64,000 nt of DNA from Patescibacteria group bacterium (GTDB lineage Bacteria > Patescibacteriota > Patescibacteriia > UBA1558 > GWA2-36-10). Shown here one piece after another: positions 20,253 to 64,000 of this stretch. The notes under the pieces were generated by a model, which was not told the DNA's origin, did not search any database, and was given only the letters and a program-made list of their open reading frames with translations. The stretch is from positions 69,030 through 133,029 of the forward strand of contig JBAZKN010000002.1 of assembly GCA_041650755.1 (NCBI GenBank). The letters are read 5' to 3'. A program made the translations under genes and the position numbers. Within the stretch, counting starts at the first letter, position 1; each line of letters begins with the position of its first letter.

Positions 20253-20254
20253 CT

Positions 20255-20685: not shown

Positions 20686-20692
20686 ATTTTCC

Positions 20693-41420: not shown

Positions 41421-44400
41421 ATGAGAGCTTATCAAAAAATATTATTAGGCGTCTTAGTGGCGGTGGTCGCTGCTACTATGATTTTTAGCATCCCAAAACC
41501 TCAGTCAGCTCAAGCTTTGGGTCCATCTTTGCCAAACTTTGTCGAGATAGCTACTTGGGTTTGGACACGTGCTAAATACGCATATCATAAAGTGGAAAGC
41601 GCTTTGACTAGCCAGCTCTTGGTACGCACTGTTGAAACTTATGTTAATAATCTGGCCTATAATATGGCGACCAGTATTGCCACTAATGGTGCAGGCGGTA
41701 AGCCATTATTTGAGACCAAAAGTGTAAAAAATGCCCTAAAACAGGCCCAAGAGGCAGCCGCCGGAGAGTTTATCGGCCAATTGAGCGCTAGCAGCTTTAG
41801 CCAATTGGGCTTTAACCTTTGCGAACCATCTTTGAACGTCAGATTATCTATTACCTTAGGCTTAATAGATTCTACTGCACCGCCAACGCCAAAGTGTAAT
41901 TGGCAAGATGTAAAATCCAAATGGGAGAGATTCGGTAATTTGACTATTTCTGATATGGTCAAATTTCAACTGGATACTGCTCCTAGTAAATATACTAGTC
42001 TTACTCCACTGGAGGGCAGCAGCAGCCGCATAAATGTATGGCAGAATTATGATGATTTTTTCAAGAGTTTTTCCTTGGAACAAAGTGATTGGGGTGTTTT
42101 TGGTAAATTGAATGAGGCTTATGAAAAAGCTCAACAAGATGCTGTGGCTGCCAAAGACACCTATCTTAAAATCTGCAATGGCTATCTAAATAATGAGACT
42201 ACTGTTAGTGAAGATGTCAAAACCACCTGTAAAGCAATAGTGGATTCACAAGGCGCGGCTTTGGCAACTTTGGCAGTGTCTGATATAGAAAAGATAAAAT
42301 TACCATCTCAGGTCAGCTCGCCCAACCCGAATTTGAGTCAGGTCATGAAGAATGCCGGCAAGTATTTTATCAGTACTCTAGCTTCCAAGTCACAGCCTAT
42401 TTTCTTGAAGCTGGTAAATAAATGGCTAAAAGAAGGCATGGCCTCTTTTGTGTCTTTATTTAAAAGTAATCAATCTTTGCGCGATGATCTTTTGGCTCAA
42501 TTGCGGGGAGGGGCAGATCTCTATCAGCCGCGCGGTGTAGATTTTTATTCTGAATTTAAAAAGATAGAATTTGACACCGTGGAGTCCTATGGTTTACTGG
42601 ATGATTTTGCCGTTTGTCCAGAAGATACGCAGTATCGTAAACCGGACAATTGTGTCATCTCGGCTGATTTTTTACAGGCTGTCAACAGCAAAGTCACCGT
42701 GCAGGAAGCGATCGATAGTGGCTATATCAATGGCGGCTTGCCTTTGGTAGGGCGCGACGATGCTTTGCGTGATAGTAATAGCCAGTGTTATCGGGATGGC
42801 TTGTGTTATAGTAATTTAGTCAAATTACGCAAAGCTAATATTATACCGGTAGGTTGGGAAATGGCCGCTCTCAAGAGCCCCAGTACCAAGCCAGCGACTT
42901 TGCAGCAGGCCATTGATTGTTTTGAAGATGACGCTAGTAAATGTAGCGTGCCGGCTACTGGCCATAATCCATATTATCATTTGATTGACCCTAATTGGAT
43001 TTTGAAAGCGCCAGCTGCTATTTGCAGCGCCTATGTCTACGCCCCAGTTTTGGAAGCACCAGATTCAAGCAATCGGCAGCAATATTGTGCCGACACCAAA
43101 GTATGTTTGCGCGAAGATGATAAAGGTAATTGTCTAGATGGCCAATATGGCTATTGTACCAAGAGTGAAAACATTTGGCGTTTTCAGGGTGATATTTGCC
43201 AAGATGGAGATATCTATAGCGGTTGTTTGACTTTTTCTGGCGCCAGCCGGCCGATACAATCATATTTAGAACAATCCTTAAGTTATTGTACGGCCGATCA
43301 GGTAGGCTGCCAGCGCTATTCCCAAGAGAAGAATGATGATGGCGAGTGGGTATTCCAAAGTATCGGTGCTGATGACAATGATTTATTTTTAAATAAACAG
43401 GCTCAAACTTGTTCAGCAGCTGAAAATGGTTGTTCGGAATTTATTATAATGGCGGCAGACAGTGGAGCAAATTTATTTGCCAACGGTGATTTTGAGATGG
43501 ATAGCGACAGCGACTTGTTGCCAGATGGATATGCAGTTTTTGACGTTGCTTCTGTGCCATTATTTGCGCCATATTTAGTATCTGGTCAAGGGGTGGATAA
43601 TTCCAACGCCGCGTTATCTAGAATCGGAGCGGGTAATGCTTGCCGCCGCATAGATGTTTTCCCCAATACTTTATATAATTTTTCCGCCTCCTTTAAGCAA
43701 TCAAGCATAGTTTCTCAAGCAGAAATATTATTACAATCTTGCACTAGCGCGAATAGTCAGCCTGGTAATATCAGCTCACCCGATGGGTCTTTTACAGTAT
43801 TTAATGATGGGGGCAGTACTTTCCCACCAAATAAAGGTTATGTCAGGTTGGAATCCACTGAGTATAATAATACTGGTTATACCCGTGTTGCCGGTACTAT
43901 CAATTCCGGTGATTCAGTTTCTTGTTGGGTATGCGCCGGCGGCGTAAATGAATATCAGTATGTGGATAATTTAAAAGTAGAAATAGTCAGTCAGCCGAAA
44001 GCAGAAGCGAATTATTCTGCTTATGGTGCCGGTGCCAAGATAGTTTTAAATGGCTCTCGCAGCATGTGCACTGCCCAAGAAGTTGGTTGTCAAGGATATA
44101 CTCCTAGTAATGGTGATCCAATGATTCCGGCTGTCATCAATCAGACAGATCTATGTCCGTCACAATGCGTCGGCTATGCTAGTTTTGCTCAGCAGACAGA
44201 TATTTTTGATGCCGTCGATCCTTTGAGCAGCAATGAAGTAGAATATTATAATTTTATTCCTAAAGATAAAAACACCAAGACTTGCCCAGCCCAAGCAGTT
44301 GGCTGCGAGGAGTTCACTAATCTTGATGAAGTAGCTAAGGGAGGAGAGGGCAAAGAATATTATACTTATCTCCGTCAATGCGTGGCGGAAGATCTGGGGC

Positions 44401-47400
44401 ATACTTATTATACTTGGGAGGGTTCTGATGTAGCCGGCTATCAGATTAAGACTTGGCTGGCTTTGTCTAGCAATAGCGGTGGCCCCTGTACCAATGTCGC
44501 CCCAGCTGGTGATGTCTGTCTGGATGACTCTAGCCCGAGTACAGCAGCAGCGATTTGTACAGCTACTGAAGCGGCTACTGACCCAAATTGTCGGCAGTTC
44601 TTTGATTCGGACGGGACATCCTATTATCGTTATCAAAATAGAATAATTTTTGCTAGCGGCGATTGTCACGATTATCGCCGCACGGCCACAGGCAGCACCT
44701 TTAGAGCCATTCCTTCATTGAGCACGCAGTGTGAGGCCCAGTACAAGGATTGTCGCTCTTATTATGGCAATACAGCCAATAATGTTTACCAGATTCTTAG
44801 CGATAACTTTGAACAGAATGTCTACTCACCTTGGCAAGCATATCTAGCCACGATTGACTTGTCTCCAGAGTCTTTGGAAAATAATGGCCATTCTTTGAAG
44901 ATAGTCAAGAGCGGTAATTGGGCAGACATATATCGCCCCTTAGGCATAGCTCCGGAAAATAATAAACAATATCAGGTCTCTTGGTGGATGAAAAATGATG
45001 CGCCGCTAAATTATGTCAGGGTGCGCCTAGTGCCATCATATAATGGCGGCGGTTATGTCAGATTTAGAGTCAAGGACTCATCTGTTATTACTGATGGATT
45101 TTTGGTGAATATTTTAAATGATAGTACTTTAAGCAATGTCAGTGCGGCTACTTGGCATCGGTTTGAAGCCAGCAATACGCTTGATTTCAATGATATCGTC
45201 TTAGATGCTGGCCGTACCCTAGCTGATATTAATTGGAATAATACGCTTTTGGTCATTGATGCTTCTAACTCTACTAGTAACGATCAATTATTTTTTGATA
45301 ATATAATTTTTAAAGAAGTCAATAGCAGCATTTCTGTTATTAAGAATTCTTGGCAAACACCAATAGCTTGCGACACTCCTTATACTGGTTATTACTTGGG
45401 TTGTCAGACCTACACCGATACCAATAATAATCAATACAATTTACACTCCTTTTCTAGCCTGTGTCGCGTAGAAGCTATTGGTTGTATGCCGGCTATTGAT
45501 ACACATAATTCCAGTAATCCATTTGCCGAGACTTTCAATGCTGGCGATAACTCTGAAATCACAGTACCGGCTGATAATACAACTTATTTGGTGCCGGATA
45601 ATACTAAATATTGCGCTAGCCAATATAAAGGTTGTATGGCCTTGGGTGTGCCAGACCTTACGCAGCCCAGCTATTTGACAACGGTATATAAGATAAATAA
45701 TCCTGATTATTATGGTACGACTTTGTGCCCCAGCACGGCCTTGGGTTGTGATGAATATATTTCCAGTAAGGGCACATATTATTTCCGTGATCCAGGCACA
45801 GAAACTTGTACCTACAAGAAAAATATATCAGTCGATGGCAGTATCGTGTCCGGCTGGTTTAAGACCAGCACCATAAATACCAACTCGCCGATAGCCTGCA
45901 ATGATTACAATAATGACGGATCAATAAATTTGAGCGATTCAGTATTGTATATGCAAGGGGAGCGTCAGGGCGCCCAGGTCTGTTCAATTGATAAAAATTT
46001 ATGCACGGCCTTCGTTGACCCATCGGATCCGCAGAGTTGCACTTTTGGTTATTGTGCCAATCTTTCTGGCACGCCAGAGTCTGGGTATGCCAGCCAGTAT
46101 GCCTGTGAATCCAATCCATCAATGAGATGGGTGCCGGGCACTTGCCAGACTTATTACTATTATAATAATGATAACATTGATAAGGATTCTTGTGCCGGCG
46201 AGGTAGATAAAAATAGTGGCTGCGCTTTGTTTTATGAGGCAAATGATTGGAACGCCGATCACAGTGCCGTCAATGTGACTTATGACTCTACTAAGACTTA
46301 TGATAGCAATGTGTCTACTGGTAAGCCGGTTAGTCCGGTAATTTGCAATAGTAGCCAGGATCCAACCTGCGAATTAGATGCTAATATTCTTCTGAAGGTA
46401 AAGAAAGATCGCCAGTGCGGGGAATGGCTGGCTTGTCGCTCTTCATCAGTGGTTTGGGATAGTGATAATAATAAATATAAAGTAGTTTGCGCTGACTTGA
46501 GTTTATGCAATGAGTTTGATCCGGATAATAATATCACTAAATGCGGCAATTGGGTTGATCCGGGGAACTTGCCGCTGACTGAGGACCTATATCAGAGCCG
46601 CACTACGGGAGCCAATAATCATTTGCAATGGGGCGACATGGACTATACTGGTTTTTCAATACCAGATTTCATGCCGGTTGCTGCTCTGACAGTGGTCAAT
46701 TTTGGCACAGCGGCTAGTCCAAATCCTCGCTTGGTTTACGCTGTCAGCAGCCCGACTTGTCTGCCAAATGGCCGCTCTTGTGATGTGGTTTTGGATGGCA
46801 CGACGTATACCGGCGTTTGTCAGGATCGCCAATGCACCATCAACCCAGATTTATCAAATAATAATTTATTGGTTGATACCCGCGGCTTCACTAGCGCCGA
46901 TGCTCCTTTTCCCATCAGTATTGCTCCTGACCAAAATCAGCTCGATAGGCTGGCAGCTTATGCGGGAGCCAACATGTGCCAATCGATCAATAGTTCTGGC
47001 GTTTCGACGCCAAACGGCTGTGAACTTTCTTATGTAAAATTAACTTATGGCAGTAGCGGTGAAGTGCGCTATTATCCAAAGAATTCACCCACGCCGAATG
47101 GTATCTGCACTTCTGGCGATTTAGATAGCAAGATCGATTGTGTAGATAGCAGTGGTGCGGTCAGAAATAATTTGTGCGACACCTATAATGATGATGGTAC
47201 TTCTCGGGCTGATGGTATGTGCTCCAAAAAAACAAAAGCTGAGACAGTCTATAATTGGCCGGGCATTTGTTTGGAAAAAGATTATAACGCTAAGTTAGTC
47301 AATGATACTGGCGGCAATTTTTATTGCAATCAATGGTATCCAGCCGAACAAATCAACGGCATGAATAGTCTGTATGACAATTATCGTGAGGCCGGGTATT

Positions 47401-49724
47401 ATAATCCGACCGGCCAAGATGCTCTATTTTGTTCAGTGGCCGAGCCCTTCCAATTGCAAACCGAAAGGATATATTGCGGTCGTCGTGGTGGGTCCGATCC
47501 AAATCACTGTAATCTACTTTTGCGCGTGCCGGCAGGCTCAAAAGTTTTAGTAAGTAATATGGCCGGCAATAATAATTTAATAAATTACGGCTATTTGCGT
47601 TCCAGTGCTTTCAATTTTGTAGAAGGCAACATGACCACTGGTCCTTATTATATGTTTGACCGCATAGAGAAAGTCGGTATAGATGTTGGTGTCTCTTACG
47701 AAGAGGCCAAGTTTTCCGTGGATGATTTCGTCATCGCCCCGGGCACCGATAAGGCCAACGTACCAGTGGTTGATAGAGCTGTGTTAGCTAAATTTTTTGA
47801 CACTGGCACAAACAAGATAGAGCTGTATTTTTATGATGAAGATATAAATAGAAACGGCGACGGTAACCCTGACGCTAGAATCTTGGTGCGCGATATTACT
47901 GCGCCAGCTTCACCCTTTGATTGTCAGGGAGTGATGAGCGATAGTGAGCCGAATGACGTCAGCAGTGTTTGTAATTGTGGTGTTGATATTCCGGGCCTGA
48001 CCGACAGAGGCTGTCACGAGGTCTGGCGTGGCCTATATAATCCTTTACCGTATAATTATTACGTTAAAGCAGAAACGCCGCCATTAGAGATAGTTACTGA
48101 GACCGATTGCAGCGATGCTGCTAGCGGTTATGCTTCCCCTCCGGGCAAGGGTATTGCTTGTTTAAATTCTCGCTCAACAACCTTTGCTAATTATTGGACG
48201 CAAATTACAAATGGCACGATTGCCAGCGAAGATGATTGTCGTGGTAACGCTAATTGTGAATTCGCTTGGTGTTTGTCGGGGCAAGTTACAGATAATGACA
48301 GCGCGACTGCGGGGTATCAATTGTATTGTTCAGAATTCGGCGGCATGTCCATTAGTGGTCGGGTATTTAACAGTATCTTTTTATCTAGTTCGTCTGGTAT
48401 TACCAGCTGTATGGACAGATTATTTTCAGTTGGCGCTTTGACGCAATATGGCTATTCAGTGAATGTTATAACATCAGTTGATCAGGGTCTACTAAGAGCT
48501 TTGTTCAATGATTCTAGTGCCACTTTTGAAATGACAGACATTTATGATTCTGATGACGGCTGCATAGAGTCTAATACTTCAGCCGCTACCAGCACCACTC
48601 CCAATGTGTATTTTGTCGATCGGCCATGTGGAATTGCTAGTAGTATTCAAAGCTGCATTACCTTTGGCCAATATTATACCGCTGAAATGTCAGGCAGCCC
48701 TTGTACTGGATTAGCTTGTTATCAGCAGTGTCGTTTGGTAGCTCAGTTGGATCCGGAAGGCGACAAATCTTGGGTGAGGACAGATATTTGGTGGCGCAAT
48801 GAAAACAATAGCCGCAATAATTATCCGGGAAATAATACTTGGTTATCGTACTATTATAAATCCAGCTTTTTGCAGAATAGCAACGTGAATTATAAGACTA
48901 TTACCGGCGAAACCGTGTCCTTTACTCATTTTGGGGCGGCTTTGGGTTATGTTGGCAAGGACGTAGTTAATGTTCGGGCGCCATTTAATGCCACGGCTTT
49001 TTCGCCATTGTCTACGGCTACATTCTTCTATCATTGGCCGGGCGGTCCCGCCAATTTATCCCTTACCCAAGCCTGGGGTACGGCCAGCGGGCAGTTAGAT
49101 TATTTATTCGTCAGGTCTTTTAATTTGCAGTGGAACAACACCAGCCAGACCTATGAGATTTTTGGCAGCCCAGTGGATATTTATGAAGGTAGTGATTTTA
49201 CCAACAAATATAATATTAAAGCTGGTCCAGATTATAATCCGGCGATTTTACAAGTTTGCGGTAACAATACTTGTGATAATGCCAGCGGTGTGACGGTCGA
49301 TGATCGTGGTTCTGGTGAAGTCAAAGCCAAAGAATCTCTGATGGTAGCCTTGAAGTTTTATTATTATGCTCATCCTGATCATATGCCGGTATCCAATATT
49401 ACGGTAAATTGGGGTGATGGTTCCAGTACGGTTTCTGCTCCGGGTAAGTACAAAAACAACATTCCTGATTGTAATCAAGACATACCAATGCCGGGCAAGG
49501 CAGCGGATACTTTGCAGGGCTTTGGCGGCACTGATAGAGCTTGCCGCGAAGGCTACAAGACTTTCTATCATGATTATCAGTTATCTTCCCCAGTCCATAA
49601 TGCCACTTGTAGTGCTACCGCGGCCGTTGGATCCGTCTGTTTTCAGCCGACCGTGACCGTTACTGACCATTGGGGAAATTCGACGACAGCCAACTTTGGC
49701 GGTCAAGTAGTGATAGAGCCTTAA
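41421..49724 (+). CDS. Giant (2767 aa) secreted Cys-rich surface protein with jelly-roll carbohydrate-binding-like domains
   Basis: Uninterrupted 8.3-kb ORF with a signal peptide (cleavage after AQA). About 100 Cys in recurring (V/L)GC(Q/E/M/D)x(Y/F) modules. Two CBM4/9-like regions (ANGDFE...DNLKVEIV; NFEQN...LFFDNIIF). Confidence 0.7.
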   Translation: MRAYQKILLGVLVAVVAATMIFSIPKPQSAQALGPSLPNFVEIATWVWTRAKYAYHKVESALTSQLLVRTVETYVNNLAYNMATSIATNGAGGKPLFETKSVKNALKQAQEAAAGEFIGQLSASSFSQLGFNLCEPSLNVRLSITLGLIDSTAPPTPKCNWQDVKSKWERFGNLTISDMVKFQLDTAPSKYTSLTPLEGSSSRINVWQNYDDFFKSFSLEQSDWGVFGKLNEAYEKAQQDAVAAKDTYLKICNGYLNNETTVSEDVKTTCKAIVDSQGAALATLAVSDIEKIKLPSQVSSPNPNLSQVMKNAGKYFISTLASKSQPIFLKLVNKWLKEGMASFVSLFKSNQSLRDDLLAQLRGGADLYQPRGVDFYSEFKKIEFDTVESYGLLDDFAVCPEDTQYRKPDNCVISADFLQAVNSKVTVQEAIDSGYINGGLPLVGRDDALRDSNSQCYRDGLCYSNLVKLRKANIIPVGWEMAALKSPSTKPATLQQAIDCFEDDASKCSVPATGHNPYYHLIDPNWILKAPAAICSAYVYAPVLEAPDSSNRQQYCADTKVCLREDDKGNCLDGQYGYCTKSENIWRFQGDICQDGDIYSGCLTFSGASRPIQSYLEQSLSYCTADQVGCQRYSQEKNDDGEWVFQSIGADDNDLFLNKQAQTCSAAENGCSEFIIMAADSGANLFANGDFEMDSDSDLLPDGYAVFDVASVPLFAPYLVSGQGVDNSNAALSRIGAGNACRRIDVFPNTLYNFSASFKQSSIVSQAEILLQSCTSANSQPGNISSPDGSFTVFNDGGSTFPPNKGYVRLESTEYNNTGYTRVAGTINSGDSVSCWVCAGGVNEYQYVDNLKVEIVSQPKAEANYSAYGAGAKIVLNGSRSMCTAQEVGCQGYTPSNGDPMIPAVINQTDLCPSQCVGYASFAQQTDIFDAVDPLSSNEVEYYNFIPKDKNTKTCPAQAVGCEEFTNLDEVAKGGEGKEYYTYLRQCVAEDLGHTYYTWEGSDVAGYQIKTWLALSSNSGGPCTNVAPAGDVCLDDSSPSTAAAICTATEAATDPNCRQFFDSDGTSYYRYQNRIIFASGDCHDYRRTATGSTFRAIPSLSTQCEAQYKDCRSYYGNTANNVYQILSDNFEQNVYSPWQAYLATIDLSPESLENNGHSLKIVKSGNWADIYRPLGIAPENNKQYQVSWWMKNDAPLNYVRVRLVPSYNGGGYVRFRVKDSSVITDGFLVNILNDSTLSNVSAATWHRFEASNTLDFNDIVLDAGRTLADINWNNTLLVIDASNSTSNDQLFFDNIIFKEVNSSISVIKNSWQTPIACDTPYTGYYLGCQTYTDTNNNQYNLHSFSSLCRVEAIGCMPAIDTHNSSNPFAETFNAGDNSEITVPADNTTYLVPDNTKYCASQYKGCMALGVPDLTQPSYLTTVYKINNPDYYGTTLCPSTALGCDEYISSKGTYYFRDPGTETCTYKKNISVDGSIVSGWFKTSTINTNSPIACNDYNNDGSINLSDSVLYMQGERQGAQVCSIDKNLCTAFVDPSDPQSCTFGYCANLSGTPESGYASQYACESNPSMRWVPGTCQTYYYYNNDNIDKDSCAGEVDKNSGCALFYEANDWNADHSAVNVTYDSTKTYDSNVSTGKPVSPVICNSSQDPTCELDANILLKVKKDRQCGEWLACRSSSVVWDSDNNKYKVVCADLSLCNEFDPDNNITKCGNWVDPGNLPLTEDLYQSRTTGANNHLQWGDMDYTGFSIPDFMPVAALTVVNFGTAASPNPRLVYAVSSPTCLPNGRSCDVVLDGTTYTGVCQDRQCTINPDLSNNNLLVDTRGFTSADAPFPISIAPDQNQLDRLAAYAGANMCQSINSSGVSTPNGCELSYVKLTYGSSGEVRYYPKNSPTPNGICTSGDLDSKIDCVDSSGAVRNNLCDTYNDDGTSRADGMCSKKTKAETVYNWPGICLEKDYNAKLVNDTGGNFYCNQWYPAEQINGMNSLYDNYREAGYYNPTGQDALFCSVAEPFQLQTERIYCGRRGGSDPNHCNLLLRVPAGSKVLVSNMAGNNNLINYGYLRSSAFNFVEGNMTTGPYYMFDRIEKVGIDVGVSYEEAKFSVDDFVIAPGTDKANVPVVDRAVLAKFFDTGTNKIELYFYDEDINRNGDGNPDARILVRDITAPASPFDCQGVMSDSEPNDVSSVCNCGVDIPGLTDRGCHEVWRGLYNPLPYNYYVKAETPPLEIVTETDCSDAASGYASPPGKGIACLNSRSTTFANYWTQITNGTIASEDDCRGNANCEFAWCLSGQVTDNDSATAGYQLYCSEFGGMSISGRVFNSIFLSSSSGITSCMDRLFSVGALTQYGYSVNVITSVDQGLLRALFNDSSATFEMTDIYDSDDGCIESNTSAATSTTPNVYFVDRPCGIASSIQSCITFGQYYTAEMSGSPCTGLACYQQCRLVAQLDPEGDKSWVRTDIWWRNENNSRNNYPGNNTWLSYYYKSSFLQNSNVNYKTITGETVSFTHFGAALGYVGKDVVNVRAPFNATAFSPLSTATFFYHWPGGPANLSLTQAWGTASGQLDYLFVRSFNLQWNNTSQTYEIFGSPVDIYEGSDFTNKYNIKAGPDYNPAILQVCGNNTCDNASGVTVDDRGSGEVKAKESLMVALKFYYYAHPDHMPVSNITVNWGDGSSTVSAPGKYKNNIPDCNQDIPMPGKAADTLQGFGGTDRACREGYKTFYHDYQLSSPVHNATCSATAAVGSVCFQPTVTVTDHWGNSTTANFGGQVVIEP

Positions 49725-52394: not shown

Positions 52395-53642
52395 ATGACA
52401 ATATTATCCGAATTGCAACAATTACCAACCGAGGTAAAAGATATTATTTTTAGCAATGATTTAGTAGAAAAAAATCAAGCTTTGGCAGATAAATTTTTAT
52501 TAAACCAAAGCCAAATCAATTTAATTTTAGATTTGGAAAATTTATTATTTTTGAAGAAATTATCACCATTAGATTTGCCGACTCGCTTGGAAAGCATGGA
52601 GCGAGCCAGCTACTATGATTTGCGGGCGATTACTTTGGATATTGCCCAAAACATCCTTTGGCCGCTACAAGATTATCTGCAAAATGTCGATCGCCTGATT
52701 TTGCGTTTGGGTGGCAAAGTGCCGAGGGCCCAGCATCTAAAAAGCGTGACTTTGCAAAAAAGGCTGTTTCCCAGTTCAGCCTCTGGCACGGTCAAGCAAT
52801 TTTTGTCTAGCTTTGATGATTTTAAAGAGCTGAGACTAACTGCCAAAAAAATTACGGATAATAATGGCCGGCTGATTACCCCTTCGGTAGATAATTGGCT
52901 TAAAGATTATAATCATTTTTTAGGAGCAGGCTATCATAACTCTTTGCAGCGAGCCCAGTATCTAGCCAAAGGGCCAAATTGCGTGCCTTTGGAGCTTGGG
53001 GAAAAAGAGTCGTTGCGCAATTTTCTTTTGTCTTATGATGATGATCTTGGCATGCAGTGGGAGAATAATGAGGGCATGCTCAAGGTCCAGCTGCCCGTTT
53101 CTGCCCCAAAATCAGATAAGCCAGTCAAAGTAGATTTAGACAAGGCTGTAGCCGAGCTGCAGCAGAACATAAAGAAGATAGAGCAGATAGCTTTACCGGC
53201 CGATTTTATTTTATCAGAGGCGGGAAATGATCTGTTTAAAGTCAGGGATATTTTGTGGCAGGCTGTCGGTACTGAAGATAAAGAAAAAGCCTTGAGTTGC
53301 CTCAAGGTCCTGGTCGAAAAGAAATCTTTAGATAGTTTGATCGCCGAGGATAATCGTTTTCGCAGTATTTTGAAAAGATTTATCGGCATTCGCTATGGTT
53401 CAGGTTTCAATAATTGGCTGGAGGGGAACTCTGATAAATTATTGGCCCGTCGTCTATTTTTAGAAATGATTTTGGCAGATAAATTGCGCTGGCCAGAGGC
53501 AGAGGCTGCCACCATAGCTTTTTATTTGACCAATCTTTGGCCGCAATCTGGTCAGGTGGTTTATCTGGATGCTACTGACGGCAATCTCAAATGGCGTATC
53601 ATGCAAGTGATGAAAGATAATCAGCTGGCTTGGCGAGATTAA
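52395..53642 (+). CDS. Hypothetical soluble protein
   Basis: 415-aa ORF with no recognisable motif; 10-nt gap from the upstream gene. Confidence 0.35.
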   Translation: MTILSELQQLPTEVKDIIFSNDLVEKNQALADKFLLNQSQINLILDLENLLFLKKLSPLDLPTRLESMERASYYDLRAITLDIAQNILWPLQDYLQNVDRLILRLGGKVPRAQHLKSVTLQKRLFPSSASGTVKQFLSSFDDFKELRLTAKKITDNNGRLITPSVDNWLKDYNHFLGAGYHNSLQRAQYLAKGPNCVPLELGEKESLRNFLLSYDDDLGMQWENNEGMLKVQLPVSAPKSDKPVKVDLDKAVAELQQNIKKIEQIALPADFILSEAGNDLFKVRDILWQAVGTEDKEKALSCLKVLVEKKSLDSLIAEDNRFRSILKRFIGIRYGSGFNNWLEGNSDKLLARRLFLEMILADKLRWPEAEAATIAFYLTNLWPQSGQVVYLDATDGNLKWRIMQVMKDNQLAWRD

Positions 53643-56793: not shown

Positions 56794-56818
56794 AAATAAG
56801 ATATTTTAAAAAACCAAT

Positions 56819-56852
56819 AAACCCTGCACCGTATGGTGCAGGGTTTATTATT
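56819..56852 (+). terminator. Rho-independent terminator after efp
   Basis: CCCTGCACC-gtat-GGTGCAGGG followed by TTTATTATT. Confidence 0.55.
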
Positions 56853-56904
56853 GGCGAGCGATGGCAAAATATGTTATAATATAGGAAATAACAGACACAA
56901 AATA

Positions 56905-58128
56905 ATGGCTGATTTTAATCAAGCTAATGCTCAGGTAATAGATCGGGATTGGTTGGATGATTTGTTGATCAAAGAACCAAGCGGTCGCTTGCATTCCTTT
57001 CGACAAAGTAGCCCCAGCGACGAATTTAAGGTGGCTTTCCCCAAAGGTTCAGCTGCTGTGAAGCCATTGCAGGATTTTGATGTGCCGATGCCGCCAAGTA
57101 TTTATGTTGCTCCGGCTGACGATAGCTTCAATTGGCAGACGATAGTGGGGCACCCGCAGGCAAAAGCTAGTTTGGTGTTTCATCCTGATGACGAAGAACA
57201 CCTTTCTCAAATAATGCCCAATGTGCCGATTGATGAAAGTAAAAAATATAGCCTTGATAAGATAGTTGCTCGTTTGATAGCCAAACAACAATTGAGCCTG
57301 GACCAGGCAAATAAAGAATTATTGACCAATGTTTTGTTTGACTTTTTTCGTAACCGCAAAAACAGTCAAACTGCCAGAGAATATCTGGCCGGCAAATTAC
57401 TTTTGGCTGGTCAACCTATCAGCGTTGGCGATTTAGACACAATTTTATCTGTAGTCAAAAGCATTAAGGCCAATATTGAAGCGGTGGGTGGCTTAGTGGT
57501 CAAGGACGATTTTTTGACCTCGTCCTCTCAATTTAAGCCAGTGGAGCCGGTAGCTAAGACGGATTTACCTACCGTACCAGAGCCTCCCAAGATAGAACCG
57601 GCAGAGTTATCACCTCAGAAGACTATTGAGCCAGAGCCAAAATTATCACCCAAAGTTGAAGCCCCGACTCTAGCTGTAAAAATAGAAGCAGATTTACCCA
57701 AAGTTAATCGTCCGCCAGTTGATCAAGAGGTAAAACCAAAAATTTCTGATGTAAAGAATAAGCCAATTGCCACTGCTGCTAGGTCAGCGCCTGCTAGCAA
57801 AGTTTTGGTCGGACCGGTGCAGGAACTGGAGAGTATGACCTTGGCTAATTTTAGGCGACTAGGAGCAAGCGCAGTCGATCGGGCAGAAAAAATTCACAGC
57901 AAGATATCAATTTTAGAAAAAGATTCTATTACCAAAAAATCTTTGGGGATTGCTGCTTGGCGCAAAAGCCCGGTTTATAGGCTATATTTGGATTTGGGCG
58001 CGGCTAGCCTAGTGCAAAACAAAGAGATTGCTACCCTGGTTCAAGAGCAGGCCAACCAGGGCGTAGCTACTTTAAGTTGGGAAGAGTTTAATGCCATTGG
58101 TGATTTAAATAAATTATTACGTTTTTAA
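56905..58128 (+). CDS. Hypothetical protein with a central Pro/Glu/Lys-rich linker
   Basis: PEPPKIEPAELSPQKTIEPEPKLSPKVEAP repeats. Start chosen at MADFNQ (56905). Confidence 0.35.
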   Translation: MADFNQANAQVIDRDWLDDLLIKEPSGRLHSFRQSSPSDEFKVAFPKGSAAVKPLQDFDVPMPPSIYVAPADDSFNWQTIVGHPQAKASLVFHPDDEEHLSQIMPNVPIDESKKYSLDKIVARLIAKQQLSLDQANKELLTNVLFDFFRNRKNSQTAREYLAGKLLLAGQPISVGDLDTILSVVKSIKANIEAVGGLVVKDDFLTSSSQFKPVEPVAKTDLPTVPEPPKIEPAELSPQKTIEPEPKLSPKVEAPTLAVKIEADLPKVNRPPVDQEVKPKISDVKNKPIATAARSAPASKVLVGPVQELESMTLANFRRLGASAVDRAEKIHSKISILEKDSITKKSLGIAAWRKSPVYRLYLDLGAASLVQNKEIATLVQEQANQGVATLSWEEFNAIGDLNKLLRF

Positions 58129-58131: not shown

Positions 58132-58596
58132 ATGCAAAATAGGTTTATTGTACCGCAATTTATTGATGCTGAAGACAAGATCTGGGGGCCCTTGACCGTC
58201 AGGCAGTTTGTGATCATGATTTTAGGCGGTTTATTCATATTCTTGAGCTACAAGTTGTCTGATTTTACTTTATTTTTATTCCAAACGGTAGTTATTATTT
58301 TGTTGGTTGTGGTGCTGGCCTTTTTGAAAATAAATGGCGCCCCTTTTCACATGTTTTTATTGAATGTTATTCAAACAATCAAGCGTCCTTGGGTCAGAAT
58401 TTGGCACAAAGAATATATTAAAGTGGAAGACTTTCGGGATAAAGGGGAGCTAATAAAAGAAGAGCCAATCCCCCAAAAAACTTTTTTACCCAATAAAAAA
58501 TTATCAGAATTATCTTTAATTATTGACACTGGCGGCGTATACAAAGGCGAGTCAGAAGCCAATATTATAAATAGCACCACAGCGATTAAAAAATAA
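58132..58596 (+). CDS. PrgI/VirB3-like small membrane protein of a type IV secretion apparatus
   Basis: N-terminal IVPQFIDAEDKIWGPLTVRQFVIMILGG motif followed by two TM helices, matching the PrgI-family pattern. Lies immediately upstream of VirB4. Confidence 0.5.
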   Translation: MQNRFIVPQFIDAEDKIWGPLTVRQFVIMILGGLFIFLSYKLSDFTLFLFQTVVIILLVVVLAFLKINGAPFHMFLLNVIQTIKRPWVRIWHKEYIKVEDFRDKGELIKEEPIPQKTFLPNKKLSELSLIIDTGGVYKGESEANIINSTTAIKK

Positions 58597-58599
58597 TAT

Positions 58600-59286
58600 A
58601 TGAAGAACAAAAAATTAGCTGGCAATCGGCCATCCACTTCGACGCAGAGATTTTTGGATATTGCTGAAATTAGAGACGATATGGTTGTTTTAAATGACGG
58701 CACAGTCCGGGGAGTTTTATTGGTCTCTTCTATCAATTTTGATTTGAAATCAGAGGATGAACAAGCAGCTATTATTAGTGGCTATGTCAGCTTTTTAAAT
58801 ACTTTAGACTACCCTTTACAGATTGTGATCCAATCGCGCCCTTTAAATATTGATGATTATTTTGGCCGTTTGAAAAAAGTGGAAAAGGAGCAAACCAACG
58901 AATTGCTGCGTATGCAAACAGCTGATTATCGACAATTTGTGGAAGAGCTTTTGACCTTGGAAAAGATTATGAGCAAGCGTTTTTATATTGTAGTGCCATA
59001 TAATTCAGCTGGCGATAAGAGTAGAAAGTTTACCAATCGTTTTGCCGCGGTTTTTTCTACTGCTAAAGTAGTGCGTTTGAGCCGCAAGCGTTTTACTGAA
59101 TTTAGCAACCAGCTGACCAAGCGCTGCAATTTTATTCAGGCAGGTTTAAACTCATTGGGTCTGCGCAGCCAACGCTTAAATACCCAGGCCTTGATTGAAT
59201 TATATTACAACAGCTATAACCCGAATATTTTCCAAAAACAACCGCTAGAAGATATAAATAAGCTAAATTTAGAAACCAATGTTTGA
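58600..59286 (+). CDS. N-terminal segment of a VirB4/TrbE-family protein, encoded separately
   Basis: DIAEIRDDMVVLNDGTVRGVLLVSSINFDLKSEDEQAAIISGYVSFLN matches the first conserved block of VirB4 N-domains. An 8-nt overlap (ATGTTTGA) links it to the next ORF in the +1 frame. Confidence 0.5.
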   Translation: MKNKKLAGNRPSTSTQRFLDIAEIRDDMVVLNDGTVRGVLLVSSINFDLKSEDEQAAIISGYVSFLNTLDYPLQIVIQSRPLNIDDYFGRLKKVEKEQTNELLRMQTADYRQFVEELLTLEKIMSKRFYIVVPYNSAGDKSRKFTNRFAAVFSTAKVVRLSRKRFTEFSNQLTKRCNFIQAGLNSLGLRSQRLNTQALIELYYNSYNPNIFQKQPLEDINKLNLETNV

Positions 59287-61186
59287 AGCTAATAAAATCA
59301 AGCAAGCGACAGCTACCCCTAATCAAAATGATCAGATAGAGGCTAGATTGGCGGCTTATAAAAATCAAAGCGCCAAGACTAATGCCGTTGAGGGGGAAAA
59401 GGAGCTTTTGGAGGCGGAGAAAGTTTTTCGCGAGGGCATAGTATCGGTGCGCGACATTATTGCCCCGGCAGCTTTTAAGGTGGACAGCGGCTTTTTGCAG
59501 CTCAATGATTGGTTTGTGCGCAGTATGTTTGTGGTGACTTATCCGCGCTATGTGACTATCGGTTGGTTTGCACCCATTATTAATGAAAGCATGACTCTGG
59601 ATATTGCCATGTTTTTCTACCCCATGGATATTAAGATTGTTTTAAAGCAATTGCGTAATAAAGTGGGTACCATGGAAGCCCAAATAATTTCTGATAATCA
59701 AAAAGGCGCACCGCGCGATCCGATTGCTGAAACCGCTCTTCGAGATATTGAGGCCCTGCGTGATTCCTTGAGTCAGGGCACAGAAAAGTTTTTTCAATTC
59801 GCCCTATATATTACTTTATATGCCAAAGATAAAGCAGAGCTAGATTTGGCTTCGGACAGGATAGAAAATTTATTGGGCACACAGCTGATTTATTCGCGAC
59901 GGGCGTTTTTTCAGGCAGAGCAGGGCTTCAACTCCACCTTGCCGTTAGGCAATGATGAGCTGTCTGTATCCACCAATATGAACAGCTCACCAATTGCTTC
60001 ATCTTTCCCCTTTGTATCTTCAGAGTTGACCTCAGATGAAGGTATTTTGTACGGTATAAATCGACACAACAACAGCTTGATATTATTTGATCGTTTTAGC
60101 TTGCAGAATGCCAATATGGTGGTGTTTGCTACTTCCGGAGCCGGCAAAAGCTATGCTATCAAACTGGAGATTTTACGCTCTTTGATGTTGGGGACAGACG
60201 TCATCGTGGTTGATCCGGAAAATGAATATCAGCATTTGTCGGAAGCTGTTAATGGTGCTTATATCAATGTTTCCCTCAACTCGGAAAGCAAATTGAATCC
60301 ATTTGATTTGCCGCGCGGTGTGGGTGGCGATGCTAAGCCCGAAGATATTTTGCGCAGCGCAGTGATCACTATTAAGGGTTTGGTAAGATTAATGATTGGC
60401 GATATCACTAATGTCGAAGATTCTCTGCTCGATAGGGCCTTGCTTGAGACTTATGCCAAAAAAGATATTACCCCGGCCAGCGATCTGAATAATATTGAGC
60501 CGCCCTTAATGTCCGATCTGGAGACAGTGCTGCTGAGCATGGAAGGTGGCGAAGATATGGCTTTGCGCTTAAAGAAATATACAGAAGGCACTTTTTCCGG
60601 GCTGTTCAATAGTCCGACCAACGTCAAAGTCAATAATCAATTGATAGTTTTTTGTATTCGTGATCTGGAAGATGAGCTGCGGCCGATCGCCATGTATGTC
60701 ATTATGAATTATATTTGGAATATTATCCGCAGTGAGATGAAAAAGAGGATTTTGGTGGTAGATGAGGCGTGGATTATGATGCGTCATGAGGATAGTGCCA
60801 AATTTATGTTTGCTCTGGTTAAACGTTGCCGCAAATATTATCTGGGTGTTACTACTATTACTCAAGATGTTAACGACTTTTTGACTTCGCCTTTTGGCAA
60901 TGCCATAGTAACCAATTCATCTATGCAGCTTTTGCTCAAACAATCGCCGGCCGCTATCAATTTAGTGCAGAAGACATTTATATTGACCGAGGGTGAAAAA
61001 TATCTCCTGTTGGAATCTGGCGTGGGCGAAGGCATATTTTTTGCTGGTGCCAAGCACGCGGCTATCAAGGTGCAGGCTTCTTATGCAGAACATCAGATCA
61101 TTACCTCTGACCCACGGCAATTATTGGAGATTGAGGAGGCTAAAAAAGAATTTGAAGAGGCAATGCTGGCTGAAGCCGAAAGGTAG
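59279..61186 (+). CDS. VirB4/TrbE/CagE-family type IV secretion ATPase (main part)
   Basis: IIAPAAFKVDSGFLQLNDWFVRSMFVVTYPRYVTIGWF second N-domain block; Walker A ATSGAGKSY; Walker B ILVVDEAW. Confidence 0.8.
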   Translation: MFEANKIKQATATPNQNDQIEARLAAYKNQSAKTNAVEGEKELLEAEKVFREGIVSVRDIIAPAAFKVDSGFLQLNDWFVRSMFVVTYPRYVTIGWFAPIINESMTLDIAMFFYPMDIKIVLKQLRNKVGTMEAQIISDNQKGAPRDPIAETALRDIEALRDSLSQGTEKFFQFALYITLYAKDKAELDLASDRIENLLGTQLIYSRRAFFQAEQGFNSTLPLGNDELSVSTNMNSSPIASSFPFVSSELTSDEGILYGINRHNNSLILFDRFSLQNANMVVFATSGAGKSYAIKLEILRSLMLGTDVIVVDPENEYQHLSEAVNGAYINVSLNSESKLNPFDLPRGVGGDAKPEDILRSAVITIKGLVRLMIGDITNVEDSLLDRALLETYAKKDITPASDLNNIEPPLMSDLETVLLSMEGGEDMALRLKKYTEGTFSGLFNSPTNVKVNNQLIVFCIRDLEDELRPIAMYVIMNYIWNIIRSEMKKRILVVDEAWIMMRHEDSAKFMFALVKRCRKYYLGVTTITQDVNDFLTSPFGNAIVTNSSMQLLLKQSPAAINLVQKTFILTEGEKYLLLESGVGEGIFFAGAKHAAIKVQASYAEHQIITSDPRQLLEIEEAKKEFEEAMLAEAER

Positions 61187-61220
61187 TCCATTAATAATTT
61201 TATAAAATAGAGATAAATTT

Positions 61221-61793
61221 ATGACTGCACAAAACAGAAAAAGGATCATTATTATTTCCATAATTATTTTGGTTTTGGTCGGCATCTTTTTAATAATTTG
61301 GAGACTGACAAATTTTGGCAATCCGAGGATAGAGGATAAGACTAATGAAGCGCCAAAATTTGTGGCCCCTAGTGCCAAGCTTGAGTACAAGGATGTGCCA
61401 CCAGCTGTAAATAATACTGAATTTACCGTAATGAATTTAGCTCGTAATTATGCCGAGCGCTTTGGTAGCTGGTCGACCGATCAGCCCGGACATAATTTGG
61501 AGGAGCTTTATCCTTTGAGCACCACTAAGATGATCAAATATTTAAAAACTCTCAACACCGATACGAGCCAGAGCCAATTTTCTGGCGTTAGCACCAAAAC
61601 CATAACGGCAGAAATAGAAAATTTAAACAGTCAGACAGCTGAGGTTTTTGTGAAAACACAACGCCTAGAGACCAAAACCAGCGGTCCGGCATTAGTTGAA
61701 GACACGATTTATCAGGATATAAAAGTTAGCCTAGTAAAATCTGGTGAAGATTGGCTGGTAGACGGGGCGTATTGGCAGGAAATAAATCCATAA
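61221..61793 (+). CDS. Bitopic membrane protein, candidate VirB8-like T4SS component
   Basis: One N-terminal TM segment plus a ~150-aa extracytoplasmic domain, positioned directly after VirB4. Assignment rests on size, topology and position only. Confidence 0.3.
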   Translation: MTAQNRKRIIIISIIILVLVGIFLIIWRLTNFGNPRIEDKTNEAPKFVAPSAKLEYKDVPPAVNNTEFTVMNLARNYAERFGSWSTDQPGHNLEELYPLSTTKMIKYLKTLNTDTSQSQFSGVSTKTITAEIENLNSQTAEVFVKTQRLETKTSGPALVEDTIYQDIKVSLVKSGEDWLVDGAYWQEINP

Positions 61794-61796
61794 ATT

Positions 61797-62345
61797 ATGG
61801 CAGAAGTCTTAGCCAATCAAAGAAGGCAGTTTTTAGCAGATCAGAGAGAACCGGAGAGGTCAGAGCAGGGTCAGGCCGAGGGCGATGCAGTCGAGCAAGA
61901 TTTGGCTGCCGGTGAGGATGCCCGCTCGCAAGCCAGGGTTCTGCAGAGGCAACAGAAAGCTGACAAGCAGAAGTCAGCCGCCAGTCAAGTAGAGGGCCAA
62001 GTTGAGCAAGCGGTTCAGGAGCAGGCCAAGGCTGTTGCTAAGCAAAGTGTTTTGCGCTGGGTAAATGTAGCTCTGGGTTCAACTATATTATTGTTCGTTG
62101 TCACAGTCTTGATTTGGACTTTCCAGTTTATAGTTGGCAATGTATTGGAATCAAAAATCGTGCCACCACTGAAGTTGTGGGAAATCATATTGTGGCTGGC
62201 TTCACTTTTATTATTAATGGGGGTGACTTTATTGATAGTCGCCATGATCAGCTTTATGGTCAAAATCACTCATTTCGATTGGGATGCCATAAAAATTTTA
62301 GGCGAATCTCTGTGGTCTGCCTTTAAAGACGCCTTTCATTTGTAG
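61797..62345 (+). CDS. Hypothetical membrane protein (two to three C-terminal TM) with a Q/A/E-rich N-terminus
   Basis: ORF only; the N-terminal 90 aa are low-complexity. Confidence 0.3.
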   Translation: MAEVLANQRRQFLADQREPERSEQGQAEGDAVEQDLAAGEDARSQARVLQRQQKADKQKSAASQVEGQVEQAVQEQAKAVAKQSVLRWVNVALGSTILLFVVTVLIWTFQFIVGNVLESKIVPPLKLWEIILWLASLLLLMGVTLLIVAMISFMVKITHFDWDAIKILGESLWSAFKDAFHL

Positions 62346-62375
62346 TAGTTTTTCAAAAGGTATTATTTTAAATTT

Positions 62376-63593
62376 ATGGATAGAAAAAAAATGCTTATTG
62401 TGCTGGGTTTTATCTTGCTAGTTTTAGTTTTGGGCTTTGCCTTGTATTGGGTATTTTTTAGGACAGCACCAACTACCGTCACCAATGAAAATTTTCAGCC
62501 AGGCAATTTGACCAATGCCGGCCCAGGCAATGTGAGCACGATTACCAATACCAACCTTAATACGGTATTGCCTTGGCAACAGTATATCAAAGATAAAGTT
62601 TCACCAGTGGCCAACGGTGGCTTGACCGAAGTCAATAAGCTGACCGATAGTACAGCTTTGGGCTTGGGCAGTGCGCCACAGGGTCTGCAGTACTACGATG
62701 CCGATAAACAGCAATTTTTCAGGATTGATGAGAATGGTCAGGTAGTTGTCTTGACTGATAAAAAGTTTTATCAAGTAAAGGATGTCACTTGGAGTAATTT
62801 GGGTGATAAGGCAATTATTGAATATCCAGATGGCGTCAAAATTCTTTATAACTTTAAGACCAATAAACAGGTTACTTTGCCCACAGAGCTGCAAAATTTT
62901 TCTTTTAATACCGCTGGTAGCCAGATTGTCGCCCAGTGGATAGGGGACAACCCAGATAATAATTGGCTGGTGACAGCCAATGAGGATGGATCTGGTATGC
63001 GGCTTCTTGAGGCTTTGGGCGATAAGGCTTATAGTACACAGATGATTTTTTCTCCGGATAGCCAAGTGGCTGCCTTGCATACAAAATATATAGATGGCGA
63101 GAGGCAGGAGGTATATCCCATTGGCTTGAATGGAGAAAATTTTAAGGCCTTTGAGGTAGCTGGCGGAGGCTTTACTGCCAAGTGGTCGCCGCAGGGCAAT
63201 AGCATGCTGTATAGTGTTTATAATAAAAATAGCGATTATATGCCTACTTTATGGATTACCAAGGGTCGGACAAATGAATTGGGCGATATCAAAGTTTCTC
63301 TTAATGTGACGACTTGGCCGGACAAGTGTACTTTCGCTGATGAGACATCTGTTTTGTGCGCTGTGCCTCAAGGCCTGCCTCGTGGAGCCGGCATATATCC
63401 GGAGATAGCCAATCAATATCCTGATGTTTTTTATCGCATAGATCTGAATAATGGCATCAAGACTCTGTTAGCCAGTCCGGTGGGCGAATCTGGCAGCTAC
63501 TCGGCGCATAATCTTTTTACTTCAGCTGATGGCTCGATTCTTTATTTTACTGATATTAATACTGGTCGCCTACAAAGCATCAAACTGAAATAA
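62376..63593 (+). CDS. Membrane-anchored beta-propeller protein (TolB/PD40-like repeats)
   Basis: N-terminal TM segment, then repeated FSPD/WSPQG/FTSADGS blade-like motifs. Confidence 0.45.
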   Translation: MDRKKMLIVLGFILLVLVLGFALYWVFFRTAPTTVTNENFQPGNLTNAGPGNVSTITNTNLNTVLPWQQYIKDKVSPVANGGLTEVNKLTDSTALGLGSAPQGLQYYDADKQQFFRIDENGQVVVLTDKKFYQVKDVTWSNLGDKAIIEYPDGVKILYNFKTNKQVTLPTELQNFSFNTAGSQIVAQWIGDNPDNNWLVTANEDGSGMRLLEALGDKAYSTQMIFSPDSQVAALHTKYIDGERQEVYPIGLNGENFKAFEVAGGGFTAKWSPQGNSMLYSVYNKNSDYMPTLWITKGRTNELGDIKVSLNVTTWPDKCTFADETSVLCAVPQGLPRGAGIYPEIANQYPDVFYRIDLNNGIKTLLASPVGESGSYSAHNLFTSADGSILYFTDINTGRLQSIKLK

Positions 63594-63602
63594 ATATCAT
63601 TC

Positions 63603-64000
63603 ATGGTTTCAAAAAAGGGAAAATTATTGTTTTATTTCTGGGTCAACCTACTTTTTTGGTTGCCGCGTCTAGTTGGAGCGCAAGCTAGTTCAGCACCTTC
63701 TACTGACTCAGCGGCCGGTATTTTATTTAAACCCAGCATAGGCATACCCTTAGAAAATACACCATTTTCCGGAGCCACTACTACCATTACCGCTGACTCA
63801 ATAGGTCAATATATCAATGCTATCTATAGATATGGCGGTATTTTGGCCGGCGCAGTGGCTTTATTTATGCTGGTCTATGCTGGCTGGCAATGGCTGTTTG
63901 CTGCCGGTAATAGCGGCAAGATAAATCAGGCTCAAGAGACTATCCGTATGACTTTGATAGGCTTAGCCTTTTTATTTGGCGGCTATTTGTTGCTTTCTTT
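63603..64000 (+). CDS. Partial ORF (runs off the window): candidate VirB2/TrbC-like pilin
   Basis: Signal peptide, then GGILAGAVALFMLVYAGWQWLFAAG, a short polar loop, and a second hydrophobic helix LIGLAFLFGGYLLL, the typical two-helix T4SS pilin layout. Confidence 0.3.
   Translation, partial: MVSKKGKLLFYFWVNLLFWLPRLVGAQASSAPSTDSAAGILFKPSIGIPLENTPFSGATTTITADSIGQYINAIYRYGGILAGAVALFMLVYAGWQWLFAAGNSGKINQAQETIRMTLIGLAFLFGGYLLLS

Follow-up and report, generated by a model that had tools for sequence, protein, structure and literature searches.

A type IV secretion gene cluster at the end of the window

We examined a 64-kb stretch of DNA from a Patescibacteria group bacterium (contig JBAZKN010000002.1, positions 69,030 to 133,029), here called the window, and a cluster of type IV secretion system (T4SS) genes that occupies its end. 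Coordinates are positions in the window, and all open reading frames (ORFs) of the T4SS cluster lie on the + strand. From approximately 56.9 kb to the window end, the ORF list contains eight closely spaced ORFs on this strand, with intergenic gaps of 3 to 34 nucleotides (nt) and an overlap of 8 nt between the ORFs of 228 and 635 amino acids (aa) (Table 1). An earlier sequence-only reading of this DNA had described a T4SS- or conjugation-like module at 58132-64000. The ORFs it listed exist where it placed them, on the + strand, and its named components were found. Its range was too narrow, given that the unit begins earlier (56905) and that a VirB6-like gene (49752-52385) lies beyond it, and its parts list missed the 182-aa membrane protein at 61797-62345.

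Table 1. Features of the T4SS cluster and of the upstream genes assigned to it.
Feature	Position	Strand	Basis or remark
Strong hairpin, probable terminator	56815..56850		After efp; 16-bp stem from scan
Promoter-like site	56851..56880	+	TTGGCG, 18-nt spacer ending TG, TATAAT
407-aa cytoplasmic protein	56905..58128	+	ORF; ATG 56905
PrgI/VirB3-like small membrane protein, 154 aa	58132..58596	+	PF12666
TrsD-like protein, 228 aa	58600..59286	+	Detached N-terminal VirB4 part
VirB4 ATPase, 635 aa, monoderm CD1110/MPF-FATA type	59279..61186	+	NCBIfam conju_CD1110
Bitopic VirB8-fold protein, 190 aa	61221..61793	+	Predicted fold
182-aa membrane protein	61797..62345	+	Transmembrane segments
Membrane-anchored extracytoplasmic 7-bladed beta-propeller (predicted), 405 aa	62376..63593	+	Predicted fold
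VirB2-like pilin-domain gene, 5' part, 132 codons	63603..64000	+	PF18895; cut at window/contig end
2767-aa secreted/surface protein	41421..49724	+	ORF; N-terminal signal/anchor helix
Extended VirB6-like protein (candidate), 877 aa	49752..52385	+	Topology and homologue matches
415-aa soluble protein	52395..53642	+	Synteny

The sequence-only reading had placed a PrgI-family protein directly before a VirB4 ATPase with both Walker motifs, and database searches agreed on both proteins. The 154-aa protein matches Pfam PF12666 above its gathering score (E = 4.5e-10, 40.4 bits against a cutoff of 27), has two transmembrane (TM) helices (residues 21-39 and 47-65), and resembles the small ORF at the equivalent position of a Pontibacillus plasmid T4SS (BLASTP, 1e-4). 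The 635-aa protein matches Pfam P-loop_TraG (9e-29), the solved VirB4 C-terminal domain in PDB entry 4ag5 (4.9e-45), and NCBIfam conju_CD1110, the model for VirB4-like conjugal transfer ATPases of the CD1110 family (349 bits against a cutoff of 325), of which it spans positions 177-729 out of 752. Its translation contains the Walker A motif SGAGKSY, and the Walker B motif ILVVDE is found at residue 491. VirB4 is 68-89% identical to homologues in >565 species genomes, and the informatively titled records among them are all metagenome-assembled genomes (MAGs) of Patescibacteria, also called the Candidate Phyla Radiation (CPR). The closest plasmid VirB4 proteins in PLSDB are from Firmicutes and Actinobacteria, at 27-36% identity. 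Many records of relatives (loci L003-L082, with near-identical synteny) are titled "uncultured Gammaproteobacteria bacterium," although the genomes are clearly those of Patescibacteria, apparently because a default label was applied when the MAGs were deposited.

The 228-aa ORF corresponds to the beginning of VirB4. It matches NCBIfam VirB4_plasma (Mbov_0397 VirB4) at positions 92-255 of 894 (1.2e-12), the CD1110 model at positions 25-123, and the VirB4 model PRK13853 at positions 11-139, and its precomputed Pfam family is PF26593 (TraC-like). The NCBIfam TrsD/TraD model is matched at 1.5e-9, but the score of 38 bits misses the subfamily threshold of 200. TraC_F_IV is matched weakly by 50 of 58 homologues, and searches against solved structures, with the single sequence and with a profile, gave nothing significant. 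Because the two ORFs match the N-terminal and C-terminal positions, respectively, of full-length models, they are colinear with one VirB4.

The two-piece VirB4 already proposed by the sequence-only reading is conserved as two genes. Wherever both parts are present, which is the case in 80 related loci, the N- and C-terminal pieces are without exception separate ORFs, and the frame of the second piece relative to the first is 0 in 13 loci, +1 in 24, and +2 in 43. A sequencing error or a (programmed) frameshift as the origin of the two ORFs was considered and ruled out, since all 80 loci are split at the same point and all three relative frames occur among them. In plasmid loci of Pontibacillus (VirB4 identity 36%) and Bacillus cereus (traE locus), an ORF of 216-274 aa likewise overlaps the start of virB4, and the small ORF before it resembles PrgI. 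The profile of the TrsD-like family aligns with these overlapping Firmicutes ORFs at hhalign probabilities of 99.6% (E = 7e-25) and 98.3% (E = 1e-14). Judged by these alignments, the division of VirB4 into TrsD and VirB4 is not peculiar to the CPR and is common to Firmicutes plasmids, and the comparison shows an inherited, ancestral split. The gene order (PrgI-like, TrsD-like, VirB4) is the trsC-trsD-trsE arrangement of pGO1-type systems of the mating-pair-formation class MPF-FATA.

The cluster looks like a separate operon rather than a continuation of the preceding rpsF-ssb-rpsR-efp genes. The hairpin that follows efp has a predicted RNA folding energy of -28.1 kcal/mol (z = -6.2), which 0 of 200 shuffled sequences equaled, and it probably splits the ribosomal-protein and efp genes from the T4SS operon. 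The site next to it, recognized by its consensus match alone (10 of 12 positions, with an extended -10 TG), would act as the promoter. The mechanical ORF call for the first gene starts at 56833 (431 aa) and overlaps both the hairpin and the promoter-like site. Given the position of these two features, the true start is most likely the ATG at 56905; the identical database entry has 407 aa.

Proteins encoded around the VirB4 core

The protein encoded after VirB4 had been called a bitopic VirB8-like protein. Its topology and fold bear this out: it has one N-terminal TM helix, a linker, and an NTF2-like domain in an AlphaFold2 model with a mean predicted local distance difference test (pLDDT) score of 89.3. 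The top Foldseek matches of the model in PDB are TcpC (3ub1, 1.1e-4) and PrgL (7aed, 1.9e-4), followed by the Rickettsia VirB8-like protein 4o3v, IcmL-like proteins, CagV, and TrwG. A profile of 73 homologues searched against PDB aligns with PrgL over the full soluble domain (E = 0.075). By contrast, the expected sequence match did not appear, as neither the protein nor any of the 73 homologues matches the VirB8 family of Pfam (PF04335) or of NCBIfam. Six of the 73 match NTF2_YvbJ, and a comparison of the VirB8-like profile with one neighbor of the Pontibacillus virB4 was negative. In 74 related loci, a homologue follows virB4. We are confident in assigning the 190-aa protein as a VirB8-like subunit at the level of predicted fold.

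The next two genes encode membrane proteins. In the 182-aa protein, a charged N-terminal half is followed by TM segments at residues 91-109, 121-139, and 137-155, which amount to two or three C-terminal TM helices; its matches in Pfam and NCBIfam are all below threshold. Homologues are detectable in only seven of the closest loci and absent in L010, which suggests that this protein evolves fast or is dispensable. The 405-aa protein consists of a TM anchor, a disordered linker, and a predicted 7-bladed beta-propeller (model pLDDT 88.8), with two cysteines that are invariant among homologues. The sequence-only reading had called it a PD40-like propeller. The anchored propeller fold is borne out by the model, but the window protein has no Pfam match, including to PD40 (PF07676); that family is precomputed for several of its homologues. 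A match of the propeller to the NCBIfam contractile-injection model CIS12 (E = 3e-4, 19.6 bits against a cutoff of 860) was rejected as generic beta-sheet similarity.

The last ORF is cut by the window end, and the layout of a VirB2/TrbC pilin had been noted in it. It matches the Pfam family T4SS_pilin (PF18895) above threshold (E = 8e-8, 32.7 bits against a cutoff of 26.6), has a signal peptide and a two-helix hairpin, and is weakly similar to the Mbov_0395 pilin-like family and to a Pontibacillus pilin-like protein. The TrbC half of the earlier call found no counterpart, as the window ORF does not match PF04956; one relative matches it at 0.0099, below the cutoff. The 27 pilin-domain ORFs from 18 related loci range from 242 to 567 aa, with the hairpin in the N-terminal part, and the window ORF probably represents the beginning of a far longer protein.

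Two public assemblies both end inside this pilin-domain gene, with the ENA contig stopping approximately 380 nt past the propeller gene, and the last 46 bases of the window had no exact match in a scan of metagenome contigs. What follows downstream was therefore inferred from the close relatives L003 and L004. These have two tandem pilin-domain genes after the propeller gene (L003, 14322-16588; L004, 14356-16337), and the paralogues have in common a repeat of approximately 240 nt with approximately 90% identity, which probably breaks short-read assemblies. The gene at the position of the window pilin ORF encodes a VanY/Peptidase_M15 domain after the hairpin, and the second gene encodes a Cys-rich tail. 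A topology like that of VirB2 would place these C-terminal domains outside the membrane. In Gram-positive bacteria, VirB1-type hydrolases are membrane anchored with extracellular enzymatic domains (PMC12857230). Given the expected extracellular placement and this likeness, the M15 fusion of the relatives could be the wall-remodelling enzyme of the system.

The 407-aa protein gene is immediately 5' of the PrgI gene in nearly all related loci. The protein has no TM segment and is well conserved only in its C-terminal ~130 aa. We found no relative of it in Pfam, PDB, or NCBIfam, and no counterpart in one tested Pontibacillus neighbor; the family itself comprises approximately 2100 clusters at 50% identity (E <= 1e-3).

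Three further genes assigned to the system lie upstream of this operon. The VirB6-like gene and the gene for the 2767-aa protein sit 6-17 kb upstream of the core, from which they are cut off by a methyltransferase gene and rpsF-ssb-rpsR-efp. The 877-aa protein has a polytopic N-terminal domain (approximately six to seven hydrophobic segments, residues 13-267) and a long hydrophilic, coiled-coil-like C-terminal region. Searches of Pfam and NCBIfam with the window protein gave no match; 4 of 38 homologues match TrbL/VirB6 (PF04610; best E = 1.4e-5). The PDB matches of the C-terminal part are all of coiled-coil type and constitute noise, and the VirB6-like profile aligns with a 779-aa Pontibacillus protein at an hhalign probability of just 23%. 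In approximately 40 related loci, a homologue is encoded no more than 10 kb upstream of virB4. The best reading of the protein is an "extended VirB6," for which PMC12857230 describes a class.

The 2767-aa protein is rich in Ser, Asn, Gly, and Asp, contains 3.7% Cys, and has a single hydrophobic segment (residues 7-25). Its sole Pfam match is a weak one to CBM_4_9 (E = 0.003). Its C-terminus is conserved directly 5' of the VirB6-like homologues in six loci (L003, L004, L013, L014, L025, and L076), and the protein is a plausible candidate adhesin that may act in the system. The 415-aa protein has no TM segment and no match in Pfam or NCBIfam. In the closest relatives its gene comes after that for the VirB6-like protein, and it is syntenic in 12 related loci; we infer from this synteny alone that it belongs to the system.

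Genomic context and relation to known systems

Proteins of the window are 100% identical to those encoded on a 236-kb ENA contig and to NCBI entries labelled "Patescibacteria group bacterium." The closest related genomes include MAGs of Candidatus Komeilibacteria, Falkowbacteria, and Parcubacteria. We take the lineages related to Komeilibacteria and Falkowbacteria to be class ABY1 in GTDB. The other genes of the window are housekeeping genes, including those for IF-2, RbfA, RNase Y, ClpP, tRNA synthetases, and KsgA in addition to rpsF-ssb-rpsR-efp. The order of the 407-aa protein, PrgI, TrsD, VirB4, and VirB8-like genes is kept across the 80 related loci wherever the contig is long enough, and a dozen of the closest species also have the rpsF-ssb-rpsR-efp block upstream. 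In a complete Falkowbacteria chromosome, the five-gene core is flanked by pyruvate-phosphate-dikinase genes on one side and radA/recG on the other; the closest relative has recG after the pilin genes.

We found no relaxase, type IV coupling protein (T4CP)/VirD4, VirB11, or integrase among the precomputed Pfam assignments of all called genes in the window, in agreement with the sequence-only reading, which had reported the first three as not visible and had asked whether an integrase or att repeats flank the module. No tRNA gene or convincing flanking direct repeat is present in the 40-64 kb stretch around the module, and GC content is even across the window. The only integrase-family gene (Phage_integrase) lies in a housekeeping neighborhood approximately 9 kb ahead of the window and >65 kb from virB4. 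The conservation of VirB4 across >565 species genomes, together with the intactness of all ORFs, points to vertical inheritance with selection acting on the genes. The cluster belongs to the chromosome, is passed on by descent, and is not a mobile element. This upholds the earlier proposal of a chromosomal, nonmobile T4SS-like apparatus, which agrees with housekeeping synteny and with the conclusion for Patescibacteria in PMC12102498.

Two published studies describe this kind of T4SS. Wang et al. (2023) reported that Southlakia epibionticum has an unusual T4SS (SEML1_0006-0019) with pilins and without a coupling protein or relaxase, and that this system is essential for epibiotic growth (PMC10633639). 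Quinonero-Coronel et al. (2025) described a phylum-wide monophyletic VirB4 clade nested in MPF-FATA, with TrsD, PrgI, VirB6, and PF18895 pilins near virB4 and no relaxase (PMC12102498). In that study, TrsD is the most abundant T4SS component in Patescibacteria, VirB8 is rarely detected and almost only in ABY1, and the T4SS of ABY1 is associated with recG/radA together with comF. In addition, a 2025 nomenclature review counts the Patescibacteria T4SS among novel Gram-positive systems (PMC12857230), and a 2026 preprint describes, for a cultured relative, feeding on host RNA and structures at the host interface that may be T4SS pili (bioRxiv 10.64898/2026.06.21.733656).

The window cluster shares the defining traits of the Patescibacteria clade: it is chromosomal, its VirB4 is related to MPF-FATA, TrsD and PrgI/VirB3 homologues are adjacent, a PF18895 pilin is nearby, relaxase and T4CP are missing from the neighborhood, and relatives have the recG/radA neighborhood. 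The clade is also listed with a VirB6 homologue, for which the 877-aa protein is a candidate, 4 of its 38 homologues matching PF04610. The locus is a member of an already published T4SS and not a new system. Some differences exist. Unlike Southlakia, for which no structural VirB8 homologue was found, this lineage has a clear VirB8-fold protein after virB4; its pilin-domain proteins are long fusions rather than an array of small pilins; and its VirB6-like gene is displaced by rpsF-ssb-rpsR-efp. Neither the propeller (by word search) nor the gene upstream of PrgI is named in the main-text passages that were read or searched. The additions made here are modest: a fold-level VirB8, a split VirB4 shared with Firmicutes plasmids, an anchored propeller, an upstream gene family, and pilin fusions.

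Among other systems, the closest in layout are the MPF-FATA systems of the pGO1/pSK41 type, which we take to be plasmid conjugation systems, and the Pontibacillus and B. cereus loci. All have a small VirB3-like gene and a TrsD-like ORF of approximately 220-270 aa overlapping a VirB4 of approximately 620 aa, and the VirB4 proteins of the Pontibacillus and B. cereus plasmids are 29-36% identical to the window protein. The Pontibacillus and B. cereus loci are plasmid-borne, continue with large peptidoglycan hydrolases, and are both classified as nonmobilizable by MOB-suite. Unlike these plasmid loci, the window cluster is chromosomal, lacks DNA-processing genes, and has other accessory genes (the 407-aa protein and the propeller). 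The Pontibacillus megaplasmid locus (NZ_CP062975.1, 350316-364058), whose VirB4 is the closest relative of the window VirB4 in PLSDB (36% identity), contains an Mbov_0395-family pilin-like gene, PrgI-like and TrsD-like genes, VirB4, and a large DD-metalloendopeptidase.

The pCF10 Prg/Pcf and pCW3 Tcp systems resemble the window cluster in the PrgI family, in the bitopic fold of PrgL and TcpC, and in being monoderm, with no outer-membrane core complex. Their VirB4 is presumably a single polypeptide, and unlike the window cluster they have no VirB2-like pilins and carry an adhesin (PrgB), a relaxase, and a T4CP. With Agrobacterium VirB/VirD4 and R388 Trw, the cluster shares putative functional equivalents of VirB2, VirB3, VirB4, VirB6, and VirB8; the VirB8 periplasmic domain fold matches TrwG and CagV. 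It differs from them in its split VirB4 and monoderm type, and VirB5, VirB7, VirB9, VirB10, VirB11, and VirD4 were not detected in it.

Function and alternative explanations

We conclude, with a probability of roughly 90%, that the region encodes the chromosomal T4SS of the ultrasmall Patescibacteria (CPR), derived from monoderm MPF-FATA conjugation machinery, and that its DNA-processing module was lost or never present. By analogy with related systems, PrgI would anchor the TrsD/VirB4 motor at the membrane, and the VirB6-like and VirB8-like proteins may form a channel that spans membrane and wall, as in Gram-positive conjugation systems. The pilin-domain proteins would build or decorate an extracellular tube, and the propeller and the giant 2767-aa protein could be scaffold or host-binding parts. 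Such a machine would most likely transport macromolecules between epibiont and host, either importing host material or exporting effectors, and would not conjugate a mobile element. The role in cell-cell contact that the sequence-only reading had suggested is likewise something we infer.

Several points weigh against this conclusion. The steps of the mechanism beyond gene identity are drawn from homologous systems, and the demonstration of essentiality comes from a distant class alone, Saccharimonadia. Other parts of the genome could contain a coupling protein gene, as our view covers 64 kb and parts of one 236-kb contig. The VirB8 call is a predicted fold; NTF2-like folds are common, and the plastid ARC6/PARC6 and CaMKII hub domains score alike. 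The window pilin ORF is incomplete, and the long fusions of its relatives may not polymerize like VirB2. The VirB6-like protein of the window lacks a family match of its own, and six unrelated genes stand between it and virB4.

The possibility most directly opposed to this conclusion is an ordinary integrative conjugative element, or a decaying remnant of one, in which the T4SS genes serve or once served DNA self-transfer. VirB4 and its partners are indeed homologous to conjugation genes of Firmicutes plasmids and integrative conjugative elements, a Phage_integrase-family gene is present on the same contig approximately 9 kb before the window start, and many Patescibacteria genomes are reported to have T4CP homologues at other sites (PMC12102498). 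However, that integrase-family gene is surrounded by housekeeping genes at a distance of >65 kb from virB4, the 64-kb window itself contains no relaxase, T4CP, or integrase, and the stretch at 40-64 kb has no tRNA gene or direct repeats. The uniform GC content, the location between efp and, in relatives, recG/radA, with synteny across many species, and the vertical inheritance indicated by VirB4 conservation and intact ORFs largely refute a mobile element, which we consider very improbable. An organelle for attachment alone, such as a pilus that transfers no substrate, follows the pilus-like option of the sequence-only reading; it would fit the presence of an exposed propeller and a giant surface protein alongside the pilin-domain genes. 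Patescibacteria, however, already attach by type IV pili and adhesins (PMC10633639); the strongly conserved translocon set of VirB3, VirB4, VirB6, and VirB8 exceeds what minimal pilus assembly needs; and long pilin-domain fusions may not form a classical pilus. This explanation is quite unlikely.

Two further proposals concern what the machine transports. It is possible, though on the unlikely side, that the T4SS is a nucleic-acid uptake machine like ComB of Helicobacter pylori or the archaeal Ced system, feeding a cell unable to make nucleotides. The lack of a nearby relaxase or T4CP fits an importer, the cluster of relatives adjoins recG and radA (an ABY1 association that includes comF; PMC12102498), uptake has been proposed explicitly for Saccharibacteria (PMC11665869), and the cultured relative mentioned above combines host-RNA feeding with possible T4SS pili (bioRxiv 10.64898/2026.06.21.733656). 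VirB4 also has a weak, P-loop-level match to CedB, but this is far below the cutoff and reflects the shared ATPase fold only. No ComB- or Ced-specific component was found, the direction of transport is not fixed by sequence, and uptake is a sub-hypothesis of the Patescibacteria T4SS rather than a different structure. Rather doubtful, in our view, is the export of effectors, in which proteins such as wall hydrolases or toxins reach the surface or the interior of the host bacterium. The pilin-domain gene beside the propeller is, in close relatives, fused to a VanY/M15 peptidoglycan peptidase, such export has been speculated upon for Saccharibacteria (PMC10633639, PMC11665869), and protein exporters without a T4CP exist, for example Ptl and Brucella VirB (PMC12102498). 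Against this, we identified no candidate effector with a recognizable signal, the M15 domain may remodel the cell's own wall in a VirB1-like role, and the window pilin gene is cut short before any C-terminal domain becomes visible.

A variant that is unlikely holds that the T4SS of ABY1 has been rebuilt around parts foreign to characterized T4SSs, namely hairpin-displayed modules, a propeller component, and a 407-aa substrate receptor. The "pilins" would then be VirB2-type hairpins that anchor and display M15 peptidase or Cys-rich modules instead of pilus subunits, the anchored 7-bladed propeller would be an integral extracellular component, and the 407-aa protein would fill the substrate-receptor role of the missing coupling protein.

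As a Patescibacteria T4SS, the locus leaves the published picture of these systems unchanged and provides a clean example from the Komeilibacteria/Falkowbacteria-related group. Patescibacteria constitute a large share of bacterial diversity, and no T4SS before theirs had been shown to be indispensable for growth of the bacterium encoding it. The locus contributes a VirB8-fold subunit modelled with confidence, a component seldom found in the phylum, and three conserved partners that have been little described (the 407-aa protein, the anchored propeller, and the pilin fusions) and that could guide structural and genetic work on host contact.

A few other observations were made in the window. VirB1-type candidates with LysM/Peptidase_M23 domains have been noted in Patescibacteria (PMC12102498), and a 446-aa protein with LysM and Peptidase_M23 domains is encoded at 33414-34754 on the - strand, approximately 24 kb from virB4. 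At 34902-37796 on the + strand lies the gene for a 964-aa class-I aminoacyl-tRNA synthetase with leucyl-type domains, in which the precomputed NUDIX domain (PF00293) falls between tRNA-synt_1 segments; this suggests a NUDIX domain inserted in the synthetase. In the region 19330-20690 (L084, 9733-9993), an 86-aa GIY-YIG ORF is located just 5' of the methionyl-tRNA synthetase gene.

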